NCBI GenBank assembly: GCA_017347465.1
Contig: AP021858.1
Span: forward strand, 1,256,472 to 1,320,471
Length of the DNA stretch: 64,000 nucleotides
Origin: Candidatus Nitrosymbiomonas proteolyticus
GTDB lineage: Bacteria > Armatimonadota > Fimbriimonadia > Fimbriimonadales > Fimbriimonadaceae
Direction: 5' to 3'
In this document: piece by piece, positions 12,383 through 19,824 of the stretch
How positions within the stretch are numbered: position 1 is the first letter of the stretch
Layout of the letters: each line of letters begins with the position of its first letter
Notes under the pieces: generated by a model
Databases searched by the model: none
What the model saw: the letters and a program-made list of their open reading frames with translations, nothing else
Told to the model about the DNA's origin: nothing
Program-made: the position numbers and the translations under genes

Positions 12383-13057
12383 ATGCCAAAGGTCGCCGTG
12401 GTTCTTTCGGGGTGCGGTTTCTTGGACGGCGCGGAAATCCAAGAGGCCGTCTTCACCTTGCTGTATCTCGACCGGGCTGGGGCCGAAGTTCAGTGTTTTG
12501 CCCCCGACAAGCCTCAAATGCATGTCGTAGACCATCGAGCAGGCCAGCCCACCGCCGAATCGAGGAACGTCTTGACCGAATCCGCGAGGATCGCGCGAGG
12601 GCAAATCGAGCCTCTCAGCAAGGCATCGATGTCCGGCTTCGATGCGCTCGCGATGCCAGGGGGTTACGGCGTCGCAAAGAACCTCTCGACGTTTGCGACG
12701 AAGGGCGCCGAAGGCGAAGTCGACCCCGACCTCGCTCGGCTGATCGGTGAGGCCTATCGCGCGCGGAAGCCGATCCTTGCGATCTGTATCAGCCCAGCGA
12801 TCCTCGCTTTGGCTCTGGCGAACGTTGGCGCAGGAGCGAATCTCACCATTGGCAGCGACGCGGGGACCGCTCAAGCCATCGAGTCGTTAGGCTGCACGCA
12901 CGAGGAGTGTGCCGTCGATTCGTTCGTCGCCGACGAGGATTCGCGCATCATCACCACGCCCGCCTACATGCTGGGACCGGGCCCAAAAGGGGTAGCCGCG
13001 GGGATTGAAAAGAGCGTCGAAACGCTAATGCGGTGGCTCCGCACGCCCGTAGCCTGA
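12383..13057 (+). CDS. elbB: isoprenoid biosynthesis glyoxalase ElbB (DJ-1/PfpI superfamily)
   Basis: Collinear with E. coli ElbB as I remember it: VAVVLSGCGFLDGAEIQEAV, CFAPDK, RNVLTESARIARG, PGGYGVAKNLS, TTPAYM. Confidence 0.8.
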   Translation: MPKVAVVLSGCGFLDGAEIQEAVFTLLYLDRAGAEVQCFAPDKPQMHVVDHRAGQPTAESRNVLTESARIARGQIEPLSKASMSGFDALAMPGGYGVAKNLSTFATKGAEGEVDPDLARLIGEAYRARKPILAICISPAILALALANVGAGANLTIGSDAGTAQAIESLGCTHEECAVDSFVADEDSRIITTPAYMLGPGPKGVAAGIEKSVETLMRWLRTPVA

Positions 13058-13365: not shown

Positions 13366-13441
13366 GGCCTCGTAGCTCAGTGGATAGAGCGCCTCCGTCC
13401 TAAGGAGGGCGTCGGGGGTTCGAGTCCCTCCGAGGCCGCCA
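13366..13441 (+). tRNA. tRNA-Arg(CCT)
   Basis: Hand-folded cloverleaf. Acceptor GGCCTCG/CGAGGCC, anticodon stem CCTCC/GGAGG with loop GTCCTAA, T-loop TTCGAGT, encoded CCA. Confidence 0.9.
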
Positions 13442-14288: not shown

Positions 14289-15275
14289 CTAGCCGTCCAG
14301 CGGGCTTCGGACGTTCATACCCGGGCGGTTCATGACGTGGGTGTACACCATAGTCGTCCGCACGTCCTTGTGGCCCAGCAGTTCCTGAACGGTTCGGATG
14401 TCGTAGCCATGTTCCAGCAAGTGCGTCGCAAAGGAGTGTCGAAGGGTGTGACAACTGACTGGCTTGTCGATGGCAGCCGCATGTGCCGCCTTCTTGACCG
14501 CACGCTGAAGACGGTCTTCGTGAACGTGGTGGCGACGCACGGTTGAAGTACGGGGGTCGGTCGAAAGGGACTCGGCTGGGAACAACCAATGCCAGGGCCA
14601 CTCCTTCCCGGCGTTGGGGTACTTCCTTTCGAGCGCGCCCGGAAGGGCGACCCCGGGGCGATCGAGCTTACGGTCCAACTCGAACAGCAGCCTGCTTCGT
14701 CCGAGTTGAACCTTCAGGGCCGGGATGATCTTCACCGGGATCATCGTCGTCCGATCCTTCCCGCCCTTACCCTCGCGAACGCTGAGGGTTCGTTTCTCGA
14801 TCGCCAGGTCCTTGACGCGCAGGTCGAGGCACTCGGCGAGCCGCAAGCCCGCCCCGTAAAGCAACGAGGCCATGAGGTAGGTCTCGCCGGACATGTTTTC
14901 GAGGAGACGCTGCACCTCGTCTTGGGTGAGGACGCAGGGGATACGCTTGCATCGCTGAGCGCGCACGATTCCAGCAGCCTGGGGCATTGCGACGCCCAGC
15001 ACGTTGCGGTACATGTAGACGAGGGCGTTCAGGGCGACGTTTTGCGTGGAGGCGGCCACCGAGCGGTCCACCGCTAGGTGCGTGAGGTAGGCGCTGATGT
15101 CTTCGCCGGTCAAGTTTGAGGGGTGTTTGCGCCCATGAAACTCGATGAACTCCCGCATCCGGTGCAAGTACGCCCTCTCTGTCTTGAGGCTGAGGTGGCG
15201 CTTGCGCAAGTGGTCTCGCGCCGCGTTGAGGAACTCGGTGACGGTCCGCGGCTCGCCTGACGTCGAGTTTACCAT
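14289..15275 (-). CDS. intI: integron integrase IntI
   Basis: Carries the IntI-specific insertion ALERKYPNAGKEWPWHWLFPA. Also has KTERAYLHRMREFIEFHGRKHP, HTLRHSFATHLLEHGYDIRTVQELLGH, TTMVYTHV and C-terminal VRSPLDG. Start at MVNSTSGE, with CATAAT 6 nt upstream. Confidence 0.9.
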   Translation of the reverse strand: MVNSTSGEPRTVTEFLNAARDHLRKRHLSLKTERAYLHRMREFIEFHGRKHPSNLTGEDISAYLTHLAVDRSVAASTQNVALNALVYMYRNVLGVAMPQAAGIVRAQRCKRIPCVLTQDEVQRLLENMSGETYLMASLLYGAGLRLAECLDLRVKDLAIEKRTLSVREGKGGKDRTTMIPVKIIPALKVQLGRSRLLFELDRKLDRPGVALPGALERKYPNAGKEWPWHWLFPAESLSTDPRTSTVRRHHVHEDRLQRAVKKAAHAAAIDKPVSCHTLRHSFATHLLEHGYDIRTVQELLGHKDVRTTMVYTHVMNRPGMNVRSPLDG

Positions 15276-15393
15276 GAGCACATTATGCGCCGTTCTGCCG
15301 GATAACACAACGCTTTCGCGCACGTATCTTGCGCAAGTGCACTTTGATATCGGAAGGCCGCGCACATTTCAGTAATCTGCAGGAGAATCAGTA

Positions 15394-15402: not shown

Positions 15403-15816
15403 ATGGAAGGAACCCAATCGGAGAACAGGAAGATGCACTGGCTCGGGTGGATTGTTCTTGCTCTCGCTTTCATCGAGGGCGGATGGCTGGCCTTCGACGG
15501 GGGTCGCGCACTTGTCGTGGGCGACTACGTCACTCCAACGTCCGGCCAGTATGCCGGCCAACTTGGTCCGTGGGCGAAGGTCGTGTCGGCGGTCGGAATC
15601 GAACCACGGTCGACGCTGATGAAGTCGATTCACCTTGGCCTTGGGGTGGCTTGGCTCGTGGTCATGATCTGCTTCGCGCTACGTTTGCCGTGGGCTTGGG
15701 CGGGAATGGTGGCCTGTGCGGCGCTCGGTCTGTGGTACCTTCCGTTCGGCACGCTTCTGAGCATCGTCCAGGTTGTCCTGCTCCTCATGCCCGCGTTGCG
15801 TGGTTCGAGTAGTTGA
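15403..15816 (+). CDS. cassette 1: small integral membrane protein (4 TM), unknown function
   Basis: 137-aa ORF that fills the first cassette. Alternative start MHWLGW at 15433 with AGGAAG immediately upstream. Confidence 0.6.
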   Translation: MEGTQSENRKMHWLGWIVLALAFIEGGWLAFDGGRALVVGDYVTPTSGQYAGQLGPWAKVVSAVGIEPRSTLMKSIHLGLGVAWLVVMICFALRLPWAWAGMVACAALGLWYLPFGTLLSIVQVVLLLMPALRGSSS

Positions 15817-15839: not shown

Positions 15840-15899
15840 GTCTAACAACAGCATGCAGCGGACGGCGCTGCGCGCCGCCGCTGATGCTGAGCGTTTGCC
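15840..15899 (+). other. attC site of cassette 1
   Basis: R'' is GTCTAAC. Arms are CAGCAT(G)CAGCGG(A)CGGCG and CGCCG CCGCTG ATGCTG, with two unpaired bases on one arm. R' is GTTTGCC. 60 bp, starting 23 nt after the ORF stop. Confidence 0.65.
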
Positions 15900-15905
15900 C
15901 AAGAT

Positions 15906-16481
15906 ATGAACATCACTTTGTCGCGACAGCAAGTTGAAGAAGCGCATCGGTTGGCATGCCAGTCTATCGCTCGGTGGGCAGACGTTCCAGGCCATTACAA
16001 CAATCGCCTTCGCTCACACCTGGTCGGAAGGATCGGAGAGATTGCCGCCGCTACTTGGTTGCAAGACGCAGAATTGAGGCTGACCCGTCACTACTTTGAT
16101 CCAAAAGCCGAACGACTGTGTGACATCAGCGTAAATCAAGCGGATGGCGGCGTAGTACGCATAGAGGTCAAGACCTGGACCGCCCAATACTGGCCAGACC
16201 TGGGGCGTTGTATAGCCATTGACCAATATAATGCGCTGTGCCAGAAGTGCGATCTCGTGGTTTGGTGTGTGCTCGCAAACCCAATTCCTGTTATTGAGGC
16301 GACAGAATACGATACATTCACAGTTGATACAGGACGATGGTCAACGCTTGAAGACATCAAGACTGCGCCTCAACGGTGGACCGGCAGAGGTTCGATGCGG
16401 AAGGTTCACAACTACCAGGTGGACGAAACGACACTTCGTGGGAGCGACAGCCTACTGACACTACTGAAAGGCCCAGGATGA
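15906..16481 (+). CDS. cassette 2 gene 1: PD-(D/E)XK nuclease-like protein
   Basis: 191 aa. VGRIGEIAAATWL helix followed by D...RIEVK, matching a D-x(n)-E-x-K arrangement. Paralogous pattern to the gene at 17359. Stop overlaps the methyltransferase start (ATGA). Confidence 0.55.
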   Translation: MNITLSRQQVEEAHRLACQSIARWADVPGHYNNRLRSHLVGRIGEIAAATWLQDAELRLTRHYFDPKAERLCDISVNQADGGVVRIEVKTWTAQYWPDLGRCIAIDQYNALCQKCDLVVWCVLANPIPVIEATEYDTFTVDTGRWSTLEDIKTAPQRWTGRGSMRKVHNYQVDETTLRGSDSLLTLLKGPG

Positions 16482-17362
16482 GCAATCTGCGCATATACTT
16501 CGGAGACAATCTATCGGTCCTGCAGTGTCTCCCTGCCGACTCGGTGGACTTGATCTACATTGATCCGCCCTTCAACACCGGCAAAGTGCAGAGCCGGACG
16601 CGCCTGTCCACCGTCCGAGACGAGAACGGCGACCGGACGGGATTTCAGGGCAAGCGTTATCGAACGATCAAACTGGCGACGAAAGAATACGAGGACATCT
16701 TTGACGACTACCTTGCCTTCCTGGATCCACGATTGGAGGAAGCGCGGCGAGTGTTGAAAGGCAACGGAAGCCTCTTCTTCCACATTGATTACCGGGAGGT
16801 CCACTATGCGAAAGTCCTACTGGATACGATTTTCGGACGGGACTCTTTCCTGAATGAGATTATTTGGGCCTACGATTACGGCGCGCGGTCGAAGACGAAA
16901 TGGCCTGCGAAGCACGACAACATCCTCTGGTATGCCAAGAACCCGGACGACTACCAGTTCCACCATGAGGAATGCGATCGCATCCCGTACATGGCACCCG
17001 GTCTGGTGGGAGCGGAGAAGGCCGCCATGGGAAAGACGCCAACGGACACCTGGTGGCATACGATTGTCAGTCCGAACGGACACGAGAAGACCGGCTATCC
17101 CACGCAGAAGCCGAGAGGCATCTTGGATCGGATTGTCAAGGTGCACTCCCGGTCCGGCGACCTGCTTCTGGACTTTTTTGCCGGAAGCGGCTCGTTCGGC
17201 GAGGCTGCGGTTGAGCTAGGCCGCCATTGCTTCCTCGTGGACAATAACCCGGAGGCGTTGCGCGTCATGGAGAAGCGTTTCGCAGAAATCAACGTGGAAT
17301 GGATAAATTGGACACCCGAGGCGCAGCACGACCAGCCCGTGCAAAGGAGACTGTTCGCATGA
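16478..17362 (+). CDS. cassette 2 gene 2: site-specific DNA methyltransferase (beta-class N4/N6, PF01555-like)
   Basis: Motif IV IDPPFNTG is N-terminal and motif I LLDFFAGSGSFGEAA is C-terminal (circular permutation beta). TGYPTQKP motif present. 294 aa. Confidence 0.9.
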   Translation: MSNLRIYFGDNLSVLQCLPADSVDLIYIDPPFNTGKVQSRTRLSTVRDENGDRTGFQGKRYRTIKLATKEYEDIFDDYLAFLDPRLEEARRVLKGNGSLFFHIDYREVHYAKVLLDTIFGRDSFLNEIIWAYDYGARSKTKWPAKHDNILWYAKNPDDYQFHHEECDRIPYMAPGLVGAEKAAMGKTPTDTWWHTIVSPNGHEKTGYPTQKPRGILDRIVKVHSRSGDLLLDFFAGSGSFGEAAVELGRHCFLVDNNPEALRVMEKRFAEINVEWINWTPEAQHDQPVQRRLFA

Positions 17363-18099
17363 CGATCAAAGACCCGGAAGTCAGGATTCTCGCTGGTATC
17401 AGCCAAGCATTGGAGGCGGAGTACCAGAGCGAGAATCGAGAGTGGGAGGGCAGCCCTTTTGCGTGGATCAAGACGAAGCCATCCCGCCAAGTCGGTGCCA
17501 TCGGCGAGAAACTTGTTGCTGGGTGGCTGGCGGCTCGCGGCTTCAACGTGGTTCGGGCTGGCGACTCCGACGCCGACCGGGTGGTCGAGAACAAGCGCGT
17601 CGAGATCAAGTTCAGCACTCTGTGGGCCAACGGTGGGTACAAGTTCCAACAACTCCGCGACCAGCGCTACGACCTTGCCATCTGTCTTGGCGTATCGCCC
17701 TTCGATTCCCACTGCTGGGTGATCCCGAAGGATGACGTGATTCGCCTCTGGCGGGTGGAGCATCGCATATCGAGTCAACATGGTGGGCAGGACGGCGCGG
17801 ATACCGCATGGATTGACGTTCGTGTTGATGATCCCCCGATTGGCTTAAACCGTATGGTGGGTCTTTGTCGGACGCGATCTTCGCGCTGTCCAAGATCACA
17901 GGTTTCGAGATCAAGAAAGTCCGGGAAGAACTCGAAGAATATGAGGCCTAACGACGGCGTGGAACACTACGCCGGTTCCGCCGCGCTCCTCCGGCGAGGT
18001 TCACGCCGGACGTTGCCCGTCCGCTGCCTTTTCGATCTCAGCAAAAGCGACATGTTCAGAGCGTCCGGCTTGTCCTTGCGCTGCCGGGCGGTATTGTGA
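17359..18099 (+). CDS. cassette 2 gene 3: PD-(D/E)XK restriction-endonuclease-like protein, C-terminus probably frameshifted
   Basis: VGAIGEKLVAGWL then DADRVVENKRVEIK. Start overlaps the methyltransferase stop. After the C5 run (17833-17837) the translation becomes Arg/Ser-rich junk. The other frame reads WLKPYGGSLSDAIFALSKITGFEIKKVREELEEYEA and stops at 17949-17951. Confidence 0.6.
   Translation: MTIKDPEVRILAGISQALEAEYQSENREWEGSPFAWIKTKPSRQVGAIGEKLVAGWLAARGFNVVRAGDSDADRVVENKRVEIKFSTLWANGGYKFQQLRDQRYDLAICLGVSPFDSHCWVIPKDDVIRLWRVEHRISSQHGGQDGADTAWIDVRVDDPPIGLNRMVGLCRTRSSRCPRSQVSRSRKSGKNSKNMRPNDGVEHYAGSAALLRRGSRRTLPVRCLFDLSKSDMFRASGLSLRCRAVL
17946..18018 (+). other. attC site of cassette 2
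   Basis: R'' is GCCTAAC. Arms are GACGGCGTGGAAC and GTTCACGCCGGAC, with bulges, plus an inner CGCCGG/CCGGCG stem. R' is GTTGCCC. 73 bp. Confidence 0.55.
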
Positions 18100-18297
18100 A
18101 GCCTTCCGGTGCTTCACCCTTGGGATATCTTCCACTCGATCAGGGCCAGGAGGAATCTGTTGTGGGTTTTGTCTCTAGACATGGCGCTCCTACGGGGCTA
18201 GAGAAACCGCGGCGAGGGCGCAGATTCCACTGACGGCTGACAAGGTCAGGAATGGCCGCGCGTTCTTGAATGCAGATGTGGCCTTCGAGTCGGAGGC

Positions 18298-18519
18298 GGG
18301 CACCCGGCACTCGGAAAGAATCCCTCACCCCCTGGCCCCCTCTCCCTCGGACGGGCGAGGGGGAGGTTCCTTCATTGTCCTGGTCGGCTCTGCGAGTCAG
18401 ACCGGGGCACCCGGCACCCGGAGTCCCTCACCCCCTGGCCCCCTCTCCCTCGGACGGGCGAGGGGGGATTTCCTTCATTGTCCCGGTCGGCTCTACGAGG
18501 CAGGCCGGGGCACCCGCGG
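18298..18519. repeat. tandem repeat, about 105-bp unit, 2.1 copies
   Basis: Units run 18298-18404, 18405-18507 and a partial third from 18508. Each contains the CCCTCG-GACGGG-CGAGGG hairpin and the GGGCACCCGGCAC motif. The overlapping ORFs look spurious. Confidence 0.8.
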
Positions 18520-18688: not shown

Positions 18689-19519
18689 TTAAGAGTAGAC
18701 CTCCGCTGATGATATCCCAGCAGGGTTGGGGGGCAGGCAGGGCGTAGCCCGACTGAACTCCAGACTCTGCGCGGCCACCGCCGGGGGGCGATAGCCAAGC
18801 GACGAATGCGGCCGAACCTCGTTGTAGTAGCGACGGTAGATCGCCGTCTTCATCTGAGCGTCGGCCAGATTGACAAAGACCTCGACGTCGAGGTGATCCC
18901 GGCGCAGGGTCGAGTGGAACGACTCCACGAACCCGTTCTGCCAGGGTTTGCCCGGATCGATGAAGCGGCTGTTCGAACCGGATTCAGAGAGAAACACCGC
19001 GAGCAGCCGGGCAACGAACTCGCCGCCGTTGTCGCTCCGAACGAACCGGGGAGCCCCGCGATCGGCAAAGAGCGGAGCCAATACGTCGCGCACCTTGCGA
19101 GCATTGATCCGCGTCGCCACCTCCAGAGCCAGGCACTCCCGAGTGAACTCATCCTCCACCGAAAGCACCTTCAGCTTCGTTCCGCTCAGGCAGGAATCAT
19201 GGATAAAGTCCACCGTCCACACGTGGTTGGGATGCTCCGCCGACAGGGGAACCGGGTTCCCGGTCCGCTTCTTGCGATATCGCTTCTTGCGGCCGAGCCG
19301 CTCGTCCTTCCAGATTCGATGCACCCGCTTGAGGTTCAAGGGAGCGAACTCCTCCTTCACCAGGGCGTGCGCCATCCGGTAGCCCATGTTGGGCCGCCAG
19401 ACCCTCCTGAGTGCTTCCCTGAGCGCAGCGTCCCGGTCCGGCCCTGGCTCCTCATAAACAGCGCGAGTCGAGATCCCGGTCATCCAGCAAGCCCTGCGGA
19501 CCGTCATGTTCCGCTCCAT
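18689..19519 (-). CDS. IS3-family transposase OrfB (rve/DDE integrase core)
   Basis: HVWTVDFIHD, SDNGGEF and later conserved E and PHSSLGYRPP motifs. Expressed as an OrfAB fusion by -1 frameshift. Confidence 0.85.
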   Translation of the reverse strand: MERNMTVRRACWMTGISTRAVYEEPGPDRDAALREALRRVWRPNMGYRMAHALVKEEFAPLNLKRVHRIWKDERLGRKKRYRKKRTGNPVPLSAEHPNHVWTVDFIHDSCLSGTKLKVLSVEDEFTRECLALEVATRINARKVRDVLAPLFADRGAPRFVRSDNGGEFVARLLAVFLSESGSNSRFIDPGKPWQNGFVESFHSTLRRDHLDVEVFVNLADAQMKTAIYRRYYNEVRPHSSLGYRPPAVAAQSLEFSRATPCLPPNPAGISSAEVYS

Positions 19520-19824
19520 CAGGAATCGCGCCCCCGCGACGGGTTCGGGAGCGCGAGTCCGTTTTTTCGGAACAGCGCCCGTACCGCGTCGATCTCAAGG
19601 TCTCTTTCGGCAAGAAGACGCTTGAGCTGAGCGTTCTCCCGCTCGAGCTCGCGCAGATGCCGCACATCGTCTGTCTGCATCCCCGCGTACTTGCGCTTCC
19701 ACACGTAGAACGTGTTCGCGCTGACTCCGTGGTCGCGGCAAAGCTGGGCCTGCGTCTTCTGGCCCGATGCGGCCTCCTGCAGAATCCTCACGATCTGCTC
19801 CTCGGTGAACTTCGATCTCTTCAT
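19519..19824 (-). CDS. IS3-family transposase OrfA (HTH)
   Basis: MKRSKFTEEQIVRILQEA...TFYVWKRKY followed by a leucine-zipper-like ENAQLKRLLAE. Slippery AAAAAAC (plus-strand 19561-19567) near the 3' end. Confidence 0.85.
   Translation of the reverse strand: MKRSKFTEEQIVRILQEAASGQKTQAQLCRDHGVSANTFYVWKRKYAGMQTDDVRHLRELERENAQLKRLLAERDLEIDAVRALFRKNGLALPNPSRGRDS

Follow-up and report, generated by a model that had tools for sequence, protein, structure and literature searches.

A Type II restriction-modification pair with an optional, nuclease-like third gene in an integron cassette of Candidatus Nitrosymbiomonas proteolyticus

Type II restriction-modification (R-M) systems are normally two-gene units, to which a controller or Vsr gene is sometimes added. 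Here we describe a cassette that carries a third gene of another kind. It lies in a stretch of 64,000 nucleotides (nt) of Candidatus Nitrosymbiomonas proteolyticus DNA (contig AP021858.1, positions 1,256,472 to 1,320,471), which we call the window and from whose first letter its positions are counted. Between positions 15894 and 18018, a DNA methyltransferase gene (M) is flanked by two open reading frames (ORFs), ORF1 and ORF3. The best explanation of this arrangement, to which we assign a probability of roughly 0.55, is a single integron gene cassette in which a Type II R-M pair, formed by M and ORF3, is preceded by a gene for an optional accessory nuclease, ORF1. The functions discussed below for the three products are ones that we infer from homology, predicted fold and gene context.

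It is already known that Type II restriction systems can travel as integron cassettes (bioRxiv 10.1101/2024.07.02.601686). Like the defence cassettes of sedentary chromosomal integrons described in that work, the element in the window is a compact Type II system packed as one cassette. Unlike them, it belongs to a small integron consisting of an integrase gene and two cassettes followed by an insertion sequence (IS) element, it comes from outside Vibrio, with its closest relatives in Meiothermus and uncultured bacteria, and it exists in both two-gene and three-gene versions. The coexistence of these versions is new, as is the recurrent and co-diverging third gene, which comes from an unnamed nuclease-like family. 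The M-ORF3 family is itself already modelled in PADLOC.

Two groups of characterized systems provide the nearest points of comparison. Like orthodox Type II pairs, the cassette has separate, adjacent and coupled genes for modification and restriction that match PADLOC Type II models, a methylase whose DPPF and FxGxG motifs follow the beta order, and a small (197 amino acids, aa) endonuclease of the PD-(D/E)XK type. It differs from such pairs in that a putative nuclease gene of another family is added to the operon, and in that ORF3 resembles solved restriction enzymes at the level of fold only, with no match in sequence. The Type IIT enzymes BbvCI and Bpu10I and the alpha2beta2 enzyme BslI (PMC4081073) likewise involve two related PD-(D/E)XK-type genes of similar size beside a modification gene. 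Type IIT systems are defined by two distinct catalytic subunits and generally by two methyltransferases for the asymmetric site (PMC4081073), whereas here the two candidate subunit genes are not always encoded together, their families usually occur apart, and the cassette has a single methyltransferase gene.

The boundaries of the cassette are set by two attC sites (Table 1). In the upstream site, which belongs to cassette 1, the crossover between G and TT falls at 15893/15894, and the bottom strand forms a hairpin with bulges (-24.7 kcal/mol, z -4.8) that none of 200 shuffled sequences matched. The downstream site gives a pattern match with a chance expectation of 0.07, and its bottom strand likewise forms a bulged hairpin (-23.7 kcal/mol, z -2.5). 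A homologous attC lies 3' of the ORF3 gene in two related loci (L012 and L001). The R' boxes of both sites in the window (GTTTGCC and GTTGCCC) depart from the GTTRRRY consensus; relatives carry GTTAGGC. Beside the array, the predicted integrase scores 435.8 bits against NCBIfam model TIGR02249, for which the cut-off is 265. The three ORFs of the cassette lie on the same strand and are joined by ATGA stop/start overlaps at 16478-16481 and 17359-17362. An earlier note on this DNA had proposed one large integron cassette with overlaps at exactly these positions; the two attC sites, the overlaps and the TIGR02249 integrase together confirm that 15894-18018 is a single cassette of three coupled genes beside a genuine integrase.

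The same note had recognized the middle gene as a beta-class methyltransferase, and the comparisons support this. Its product matches PF01555 with 145.4 bits against a cut-off of 26.7 (3e-42), motif IV (DPPF) lies N-terminal to motif I (FAGSG) as expected for the beta class, and the PADLOC MTase_II model PDLC03300 is matched at 1e-139. The closest solved relative is M.RsrI (1e-24). Because the nearest solved relatives, which are M.RsrI, CcrM and EcoP15I Mod, are N6-adenine enzymes, while N4-cytosine enzymes score far lower, the product of M is more likely to be N6-methyladenine than N4-methylcytosine.

ORF3 matches the PADLOC restriction-enzyme model REase_II PDLC03515 at 1.6e-48 over profile positions 7-160 of 186, a match that covers only the first 159 residues of ORF3 as written. 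A word-indexed search recovered more than 1133 homologues, and the family alignment conserves G46, G49, E50, D73, E82-x-K84 and an FQQxRDQ motif. Sequence searches of PDB chains with ORF3 and its family profile returned nothing significant. At the level of structure, an AlphaFold model of a homologue that is 89% identical (P0008), with a mean predicted local distance difference test (pLDDT) score of 85, matches the folds of NhoI, the N-terminal domain of Eco15I, I-Ssp6803I, Hjc, NaeI and EcoRV with template modeling (TM) scores of 0.33-0.49. The same homologue, used as a query against a plasmid collection, yielded no match and no annotated name.

Genomic context points in the same direction. 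In a sample of 80 loci taken from 80 different GTDB species, M lies immediately 5' of the ORF3 homologue in 79, and the exception is a contig end. On this evidence, M and ORF3 appear to be a self-sufficient, ordinary and very common Type II pair of an IIP-like kind. A scan for palindrome avoidance found AGCT, CAGCTG and AAGCTT to be low in the window, with z values of about -3 to -4 that carry no multiplicity test, and the AGCT-core signal was weak and inconsistent across the three sets examined, which comprised the window, 10 loci close to it and 80 loci from genomes.

The copy of ORF3 in the window is not intact. As written, the reading frame passes through the attC site to 18099 and encodes 246 aa. 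Beyond codon 159, the conserved sequence shifts to the -1 frame, in which positions 17838 to 17951 encode the conserved C-terminus DWLKPYGGSLSDAI...EEYEA and end in a TAA codon at 17949-17951. Addition of one C to the run of five at 17833-17837 restores an ORF3 of 197 aa that aligns with 197-aa homologues at 100% coverage and 85-89% identity, and all six aligned relatives carry one extra base at this run. Moreover, a short public contig from a Logan assembly (L154, run DRR075734) is identical to positions 15865-18245 of the window over 2382 nt except for one extra C, and with its run of six it encodes the intact 197-aa protein.

The frameshift removes 38 conserved C-terminal residues, including the invariant W162, G167, G168 and T181, from a segment that is confidently structured in the P0008 model. 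Because the lost segment contains both invariant residues and confidently modelled structure, the ORF3 enzyme should be inactive in this copy. The missing C reflects either a sequencing error in the homopolymer or a genuine mutation that inactivates the gene. Taken as it was sequenced, this copy would have only ORF1 and M intact and would express a truncated and frame-shifted ORF3, such that it lacks the intact endonuclease reading frame of a Type II R-M system. A programmed frameshift or phase variation at the run was considered and judged unlikely, given that the run comprises just five or six C residues, that an otherwise identical sequence with six exists, and that the run is broken up in four (L012, L014, L004 and L001) of the six relatives in the alignment. 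The earlier note had correctly identified the motifs of ORF3 but had overlooked the frameshift. A scenario that it raised against its own proposal, in which the methylase is an orphan with inactive partners, applies here in part, as one of the two partners is disrupted. Homologues of ORF3 are also split into two frames in two further genomes, at L012 (760-1851) and L075 (3935-4561), which suggests either recurrent inactivation of the restriction gene or recurrent assembly errors.

Less familiar is ORF1, which represents a family of approximately 190 aa proteins that has neither a Pfam entry nor a significant solved relative. An exhaustive profile search of 1.84 billion cluster representatives, each standing for a cluster at 50% identity, found about 300 members with an expectation value (E) of at most 1e-3. 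When ORF1 and 50 of its relatives were compared with Pfam, neither a family nor a helix-turn-helix (HTH) domain was found, and the comparison gave just four weak NERD matches among the relatives. PADLOC gave no match to ORF1. The only NCBIfam candidate, YraN/UPF0102, was rejected because its score of 16.2 bits is far under the family cut-off of 171. A match at 2e-9 connects ORF1 to phrog_16175, a phage family of unknown function.

Despite the lack of a named family, the pattern of conservation is informative. G41, G44, E45, D73 and E87-x-K89 are the conserved motif positions, and E45, D73, E or D at 87 and K89, together with about 16 others, are invariant across 64 members drawn from all three gene contexts in which the family is found. 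In the AlphaFold 2 model (pLDDT 91), E45 is on a helix (34-54), D73 falls just before a strand (74-77) and E87-x-K89 is on the strand at 83-92. ORF1 is therefore predicted to be a PD-(D/E)XK nuclease-like protein in which the canonical arrangement is present with a full catalytic set. The earlier note had assigned this layout to both flanking proteins by eye, and the motifs that it quoted do fall at invariant family positions.

Sequence searches of PDB chains with ORF1 and its family profile found nothing significant, and a Foldseek search of the PDB with the ORF1 model returned weak PD-(D/E)XK look-alikes only (Cas4/ACE1, EcoRV and PA-N), which suggest no particular function for ORF1. Among predicted viral structures, 34 phage proteins in BFVD match the ORF1 model at E<1e-3 with TM scores of up to 0.81, and these include a VRR-NUC protein, a protein with a NO VEIN C-terminal domain and one that bears the name 'restriction endonuclease'. 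ORF1 superposes on K4FB91 of Cronobacter phage GAP32 (TM 0.79) and on A0A6J5T487 (TM 0.81). These phrog_16175 and BFVD proteins differ from ORF1 in that they are encoded by phages and do not stand beside a methyltransferase; the window protein is 25-31% identical to them. Three longer members of the ORF1 family (P0372, P0374 and P0388; 281-342 aa) carry a Cys-rich C-terminal extension with CxxC and C-x-R-C-F-P motifs that resembles a zinc-binding region. No Pfam domain was found in the additional parts of the longer proteins, and none of these is a fusion of ORF1 with ORF3.

Within the cassette lineage, ORF1 is optional. A relative of ORF1 lies near the M-ORF3 pair in only four of the 80 species loci, and the pair occurs without it in the remaining 76. 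Two-gene cassettes (L012 and L038) have an R' box, GTTAGGC, directly before the start of M and the same attC after ORF3. They are 84-89.5% identical to the window in nucleotide sequence, compared with 85% for the nearest three-gene unit, or triad (L092), and 71-78% for three others (L004, L001 and L003). Because these cassettes match the window as closely as its nearest triad does, ORF1 appears to have been lost or gained recently within this lineage. A further locus (L002, 1560-2910) retains ORF1 and M at 86% nucleotide identity to the window; unrelated sequence replaces ORF3, and the C-terminus of the methyltransferase has diverged. One defence cassette is therefore encountered in three integron forms, which are M-ORF3, ORF1-M-ORF3, and the ORF1-M form of L002 that lacks the usual endonuclease.

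Where ORF1 does accompany the pair, the association is recurrent. Triads are present as cassettes in other integrons (L001/L093, L092, and L004-L006 and L015 from Meiothermus) as well as in settings outside integrons (L009 and L157). In L001/L093 the three-gene unit is the first cassette after intI, in Meiothermus it follows a degraded intI, and in L092 an R' box directly precedes ORF1. A neighbour-joining tree places triads in at least six deep ORF1 lineages, and four gene orders are observed if ORF1 is written as O1 and ORF3 as R: O1-M-R, M-O1-R, M-R-O1, and O1 convergent with the R-M genes. Pairwise identities between ORF1 proteins correlate with those of M (r 0.90) and ORF3 (r 0.89). The 4-nt overlaps are kept in L001, L003, L004 and L154, and extend to relatives at 68-86% protein identity. 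No methyltransferase of another family was seen beside ORF1 copies. The best-supported view of these comparisons is that ORF1 and this R-M family have been inherited together over a long time and that ORF1 is not a random neighbour.

Some of these loci have a common setting. In the Meiothermus records (L004-L006 and L015) and in L001, a shared chromosomal neighbourhood with genes for acyl-CoA dehydrogenases, an APH kinase and arginase is followed by the integrase gene and the triad. The integrase gene is reduced to fragments of 109-147 aa in the Meiothermus records and is intact (348 aa) in L001.

Most members of the ORF1 family are found elsewhere. In a set of 62 ORF1 loci from metagenomes, nine show linkage to M or ORF3, and among the 22 well-flanked loci, defined as those with at least 1.5 kb on both sides, four have the M-ORF3 pair nearby and 18 have neither gene. 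The unlinked copies form two clades, one chromosomal and one from phages. Members of the chromosomal clade adjoin genes for a small membrane protein or for ATP-binding cassette (ABC) transporters, and one stand-alone copy occupies an ordinary chromosomal neighbourhood on a Chloroflexi contig of 1.24 Mb. Members of the phage clade (L139-L151, with about 30% identity) directly follow the gene for the large terminase subunit (phrog_2), for example in L150 (2388-4507). More distant relatives reside in jumbo phages of about 350 kb that infect enterobacteria, Erwinia, Xanthomonas and Vibrio. No methyltransferase motifs were found near stand-alone copies of ORF1. The phage-like contigs also carry a small-terminase-like ORF and double ParB-like ORFs upstream.

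These findings can be assembled into a working model. The integrase would capture and move the cassette, which would be transcribed from the integron promoter, and the ATGA overlaps would couple translation from ORF1 to M to ORF3. M would methylate host sites, probably as N6-methyladenine, and the ORF3 enzyme, probably acting as a homodimer, would cut unmethylated incoming DNA. For ORF1, the best-supported role is that of an optional and autonomous accessory nuclease, long co-inherited with the R-M family, which would add to the defence as a second nuclease and not serve as an obligatory subunit of the ORF3 enzyme. Two versions of this role seem about equally probable. ORF1 might be a methylase-independent helper nuclease, specific for DNA structures or ends, that helps destroy restricted DNA, and this version is favoured because many stand-alone copies keep the identical conserved residues. 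Alternatively, ORF1 might be a second restriction nuclease against which the host is protected by the same methylation, a version that is favoured because ORF1 is specifically and persistently linked to the pair, because it is coupled to M, and because a remnant exists in which only ORF1 and M are left.

Several points weigh against the accessory-nuclease model. Neither version of the role explains everything, as the stand-alone genes speak against dependence on a methylase, and the specific, persistent linkage to a single R-M family speaks against a helper that is purely generic. Because no solved structure matches the ORF1 model significantly (the best PDB match has E 0.17), ORF1 is called a nuclease on the basis of its motif layout, its fold class and its conservation. 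The neighbour-joining tree from which the ORF1 lineages were counted is midpoint-rooted and crude, and the correlations of ORF1 identity with M and ORF3 are inflated by clade structure. Furthermore, a facultative hetero-oligomer of ORF1 and ORF3 is possible given their common ancestral fold.

A bolder proposal, which we entertain only tentatively, is that the ORF1 family is a new family of accessory restriction nucleases and that ORF1 is a functionally integrated third component, through which an ordinary Type II pair becomes a system with two nucleases and one methylase. Under this proposal, ORF1 might be a second nuclease against which the same methylation protects, or it might join its distant paralogue ORF3 in a facultative hetero-oligomer, and its stand-alone and phage-borne relatives would be exapted descendants.

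Another view, that ORF1 is a selfish or hitch-hiking gene, such as a free-standing homing-type endonuclease or a phage-derived nuclease that inserts beside conserved genes, and that its presence is incidental to restriction, seems unlikely. It would account for the patchy distribution of ORF1 among the 80 species loci (4/80), its variable position relative to M and ORF3, and its relatives that directly follow phage terminase genes or reside in jumbo phages. In addition, I-Ssp6803I, one of the folds matched by the related ORF3, is a homing endonuclease of the PD-(D/E)XK type. However, ORF1 divergence follows that of M and ORF3 across lineages (r ~0.9), and the ATGA coupling retained at 68-86% protein identity argues for long co-inheritance and not for repeated invasion. 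The linkage is also specific to one R-M family.

The earlier note had suggested yet another arrangement, in which ORF1 and ORF3 are diverged paralogues that form the two subunits of one heteromeric or nicking restriction enzyme served by a single methyltransferase. The relationship between the two proteins is real but distant. BLASTP aligns ORF1 with ORF3 at E 0.002 and about 25% identity over the core, and hhalign joins the two family alignments with 86.6% probability (E 4.5e-6, 89 columns) across the helix that bears GxIGE, the Asp residue, the strand with ExK and the strand that follows it. In addition, bridging sequences exist, as the ORF3 profile matches 13 of 148 ORF1-family representatives. 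The two proteins are thus remote homologues whose similarity is beyond chance, and they are ancient paralogues, not recent ones. One detail of the by-eye comparison must be corrected: the note had paired the strand DLVVWCVL with YDLAICLGV, whereas hhalign pairs DLGRCIAI with DLAICLGV.

A shared PD-(D/E)XK core, translational coupling in one operon and co-divergence within triads are what two subunits of an enzyme might be expected to display, and BslI offers a precedent for a heteromeric enzyme that acts on a palindrome (PMC4081073). Nevertheless, we consider an obligate heterodimer or nicking enzyme decidedly unlikely because M and ORF3 appear to be self-sufficient. The M-ORF3 pair lacks ORF1 in 76 of 80 species, near-identical cassettes among them, and the ORF3 proteins of triads are 85-89% identical to those of two-gene units and so are not specialised. 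Most relatives of ORF1 have no ORF3 nearby, with 4 of the 22 well-flanked loci linked, and the cassette supplies one methyltransferase where Type IIT enzymes generally have two for an asymmetric site (PMC4081073). That ORF1 is a non-catalytic, controller-like regulator with a nuclease fold, which delays restriction until methylation is set, is very improbable: it is first in the operon in the window clade, as C genes frequently are, but its 191 aa hold no HTH or other Pfam domain, its catalytic E, D, E/D and K are invariant in 64 diverse members, it is downstream of M or convergent in other lineages, and stand-alone copies have no operon to control.

The value of the cassette lies partly in what it may reveal about ORF1. 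An uncharacterised family of nuclease-like proteins has remained associated with a single R-M family across several gene rearrangements while co-diverging with it. If ORF1 acts together with the R-M genes, it would represent a new accessory component, perhaps serving as a backup nuclease or degrading DNA after the first cut, and it would suggest a function for a number of 'hypothetical proteins' from phages and Chloroflexi. If ORF1 is instead a hitch-hiker, the window holds a restriction cassette of the ordinary kind whose restriction gene is broken.

Table 1. Positions of the three-gene cassette, its reading frames and the adjoining integron features in the window
Feature	Position	Strand	Description
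ORF1	15906-16481	+	191 aa; uncharacterised, PD-(D/E)XK-type nuclease-like; optional third gene
M	16478-17362	+	294 aa; predicted beta-class DNA amino-methyltransferase; DPPF at residues 29-32, FAGSG near residue 232
ORF3, 5' part (codons 1-159)	17359-17837	+	Predicted catalytic core of Type II restriction endonuclease (E50, D73, E82-x-K84)
C5 homopolymer	17833-17837	+	Site of 1-nt deletion (frameshift) in ORF3; alignment with six relatives and L154
ORF3, 3' part (-1 frame)	17838-17951	+	DWLKPYGGSLSDAIFALSKITGFEIKKVREELEEYEA followed by stop; conserved W162, G167, G168, T181; three-frame translation
attC of three-gene cassette	17947-18018	+	R'' GCCTAAC ... R' GTTGCCC
attC of cassette 1	15840-15899	+	R'' GTCTAAC ... 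R' GTTTGCC; 5' boundary of three-gene cassette
Cassette 1 ORF	15403-15816	+	137 aa, hydrophobic; from ORF list
intI, integron integrase	14289-15365	-	358 aa; TIGR02249; Pfam Phage_integrase and Phage_int_SAM_4

The remainder of the integron is brief. Cassette 1 encodes a single orphan protein of 137 aa that matches no Pfam or NCBIfam family and has no similarity to the small membrane protein encoded beside stand-alone ORF1 genes. On the far side of intI, a minus-strand match to the attC pattern at 12817-12890 (0.07 expected) is probably a chance occurrence, as it lies inside a 224-aa ORF of the DJ-1/PfpI family (12383-13057). Between the attC of the three-gene cassette and the IS element, a GC-rich element of about 100 nt is present in two tandem copies (18283-18516) that are spaced by approximately 103-107 nt and are 92% identical over 96 nt. 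This could be a small repeat or an element resembling a miniature inverted-repeat transposable element (MITE). Directly 3' of the two-cassette array, a minus-strand IS transposase gene (18689-19667) encodes rve and rve_3 integrase core domains and HTH_21, and this element may have truncated the array. At the other end, a tRNA-Arg(CCT) gene (13366-13441, plus strand) lies about 850 nt past the 3' end of intI.

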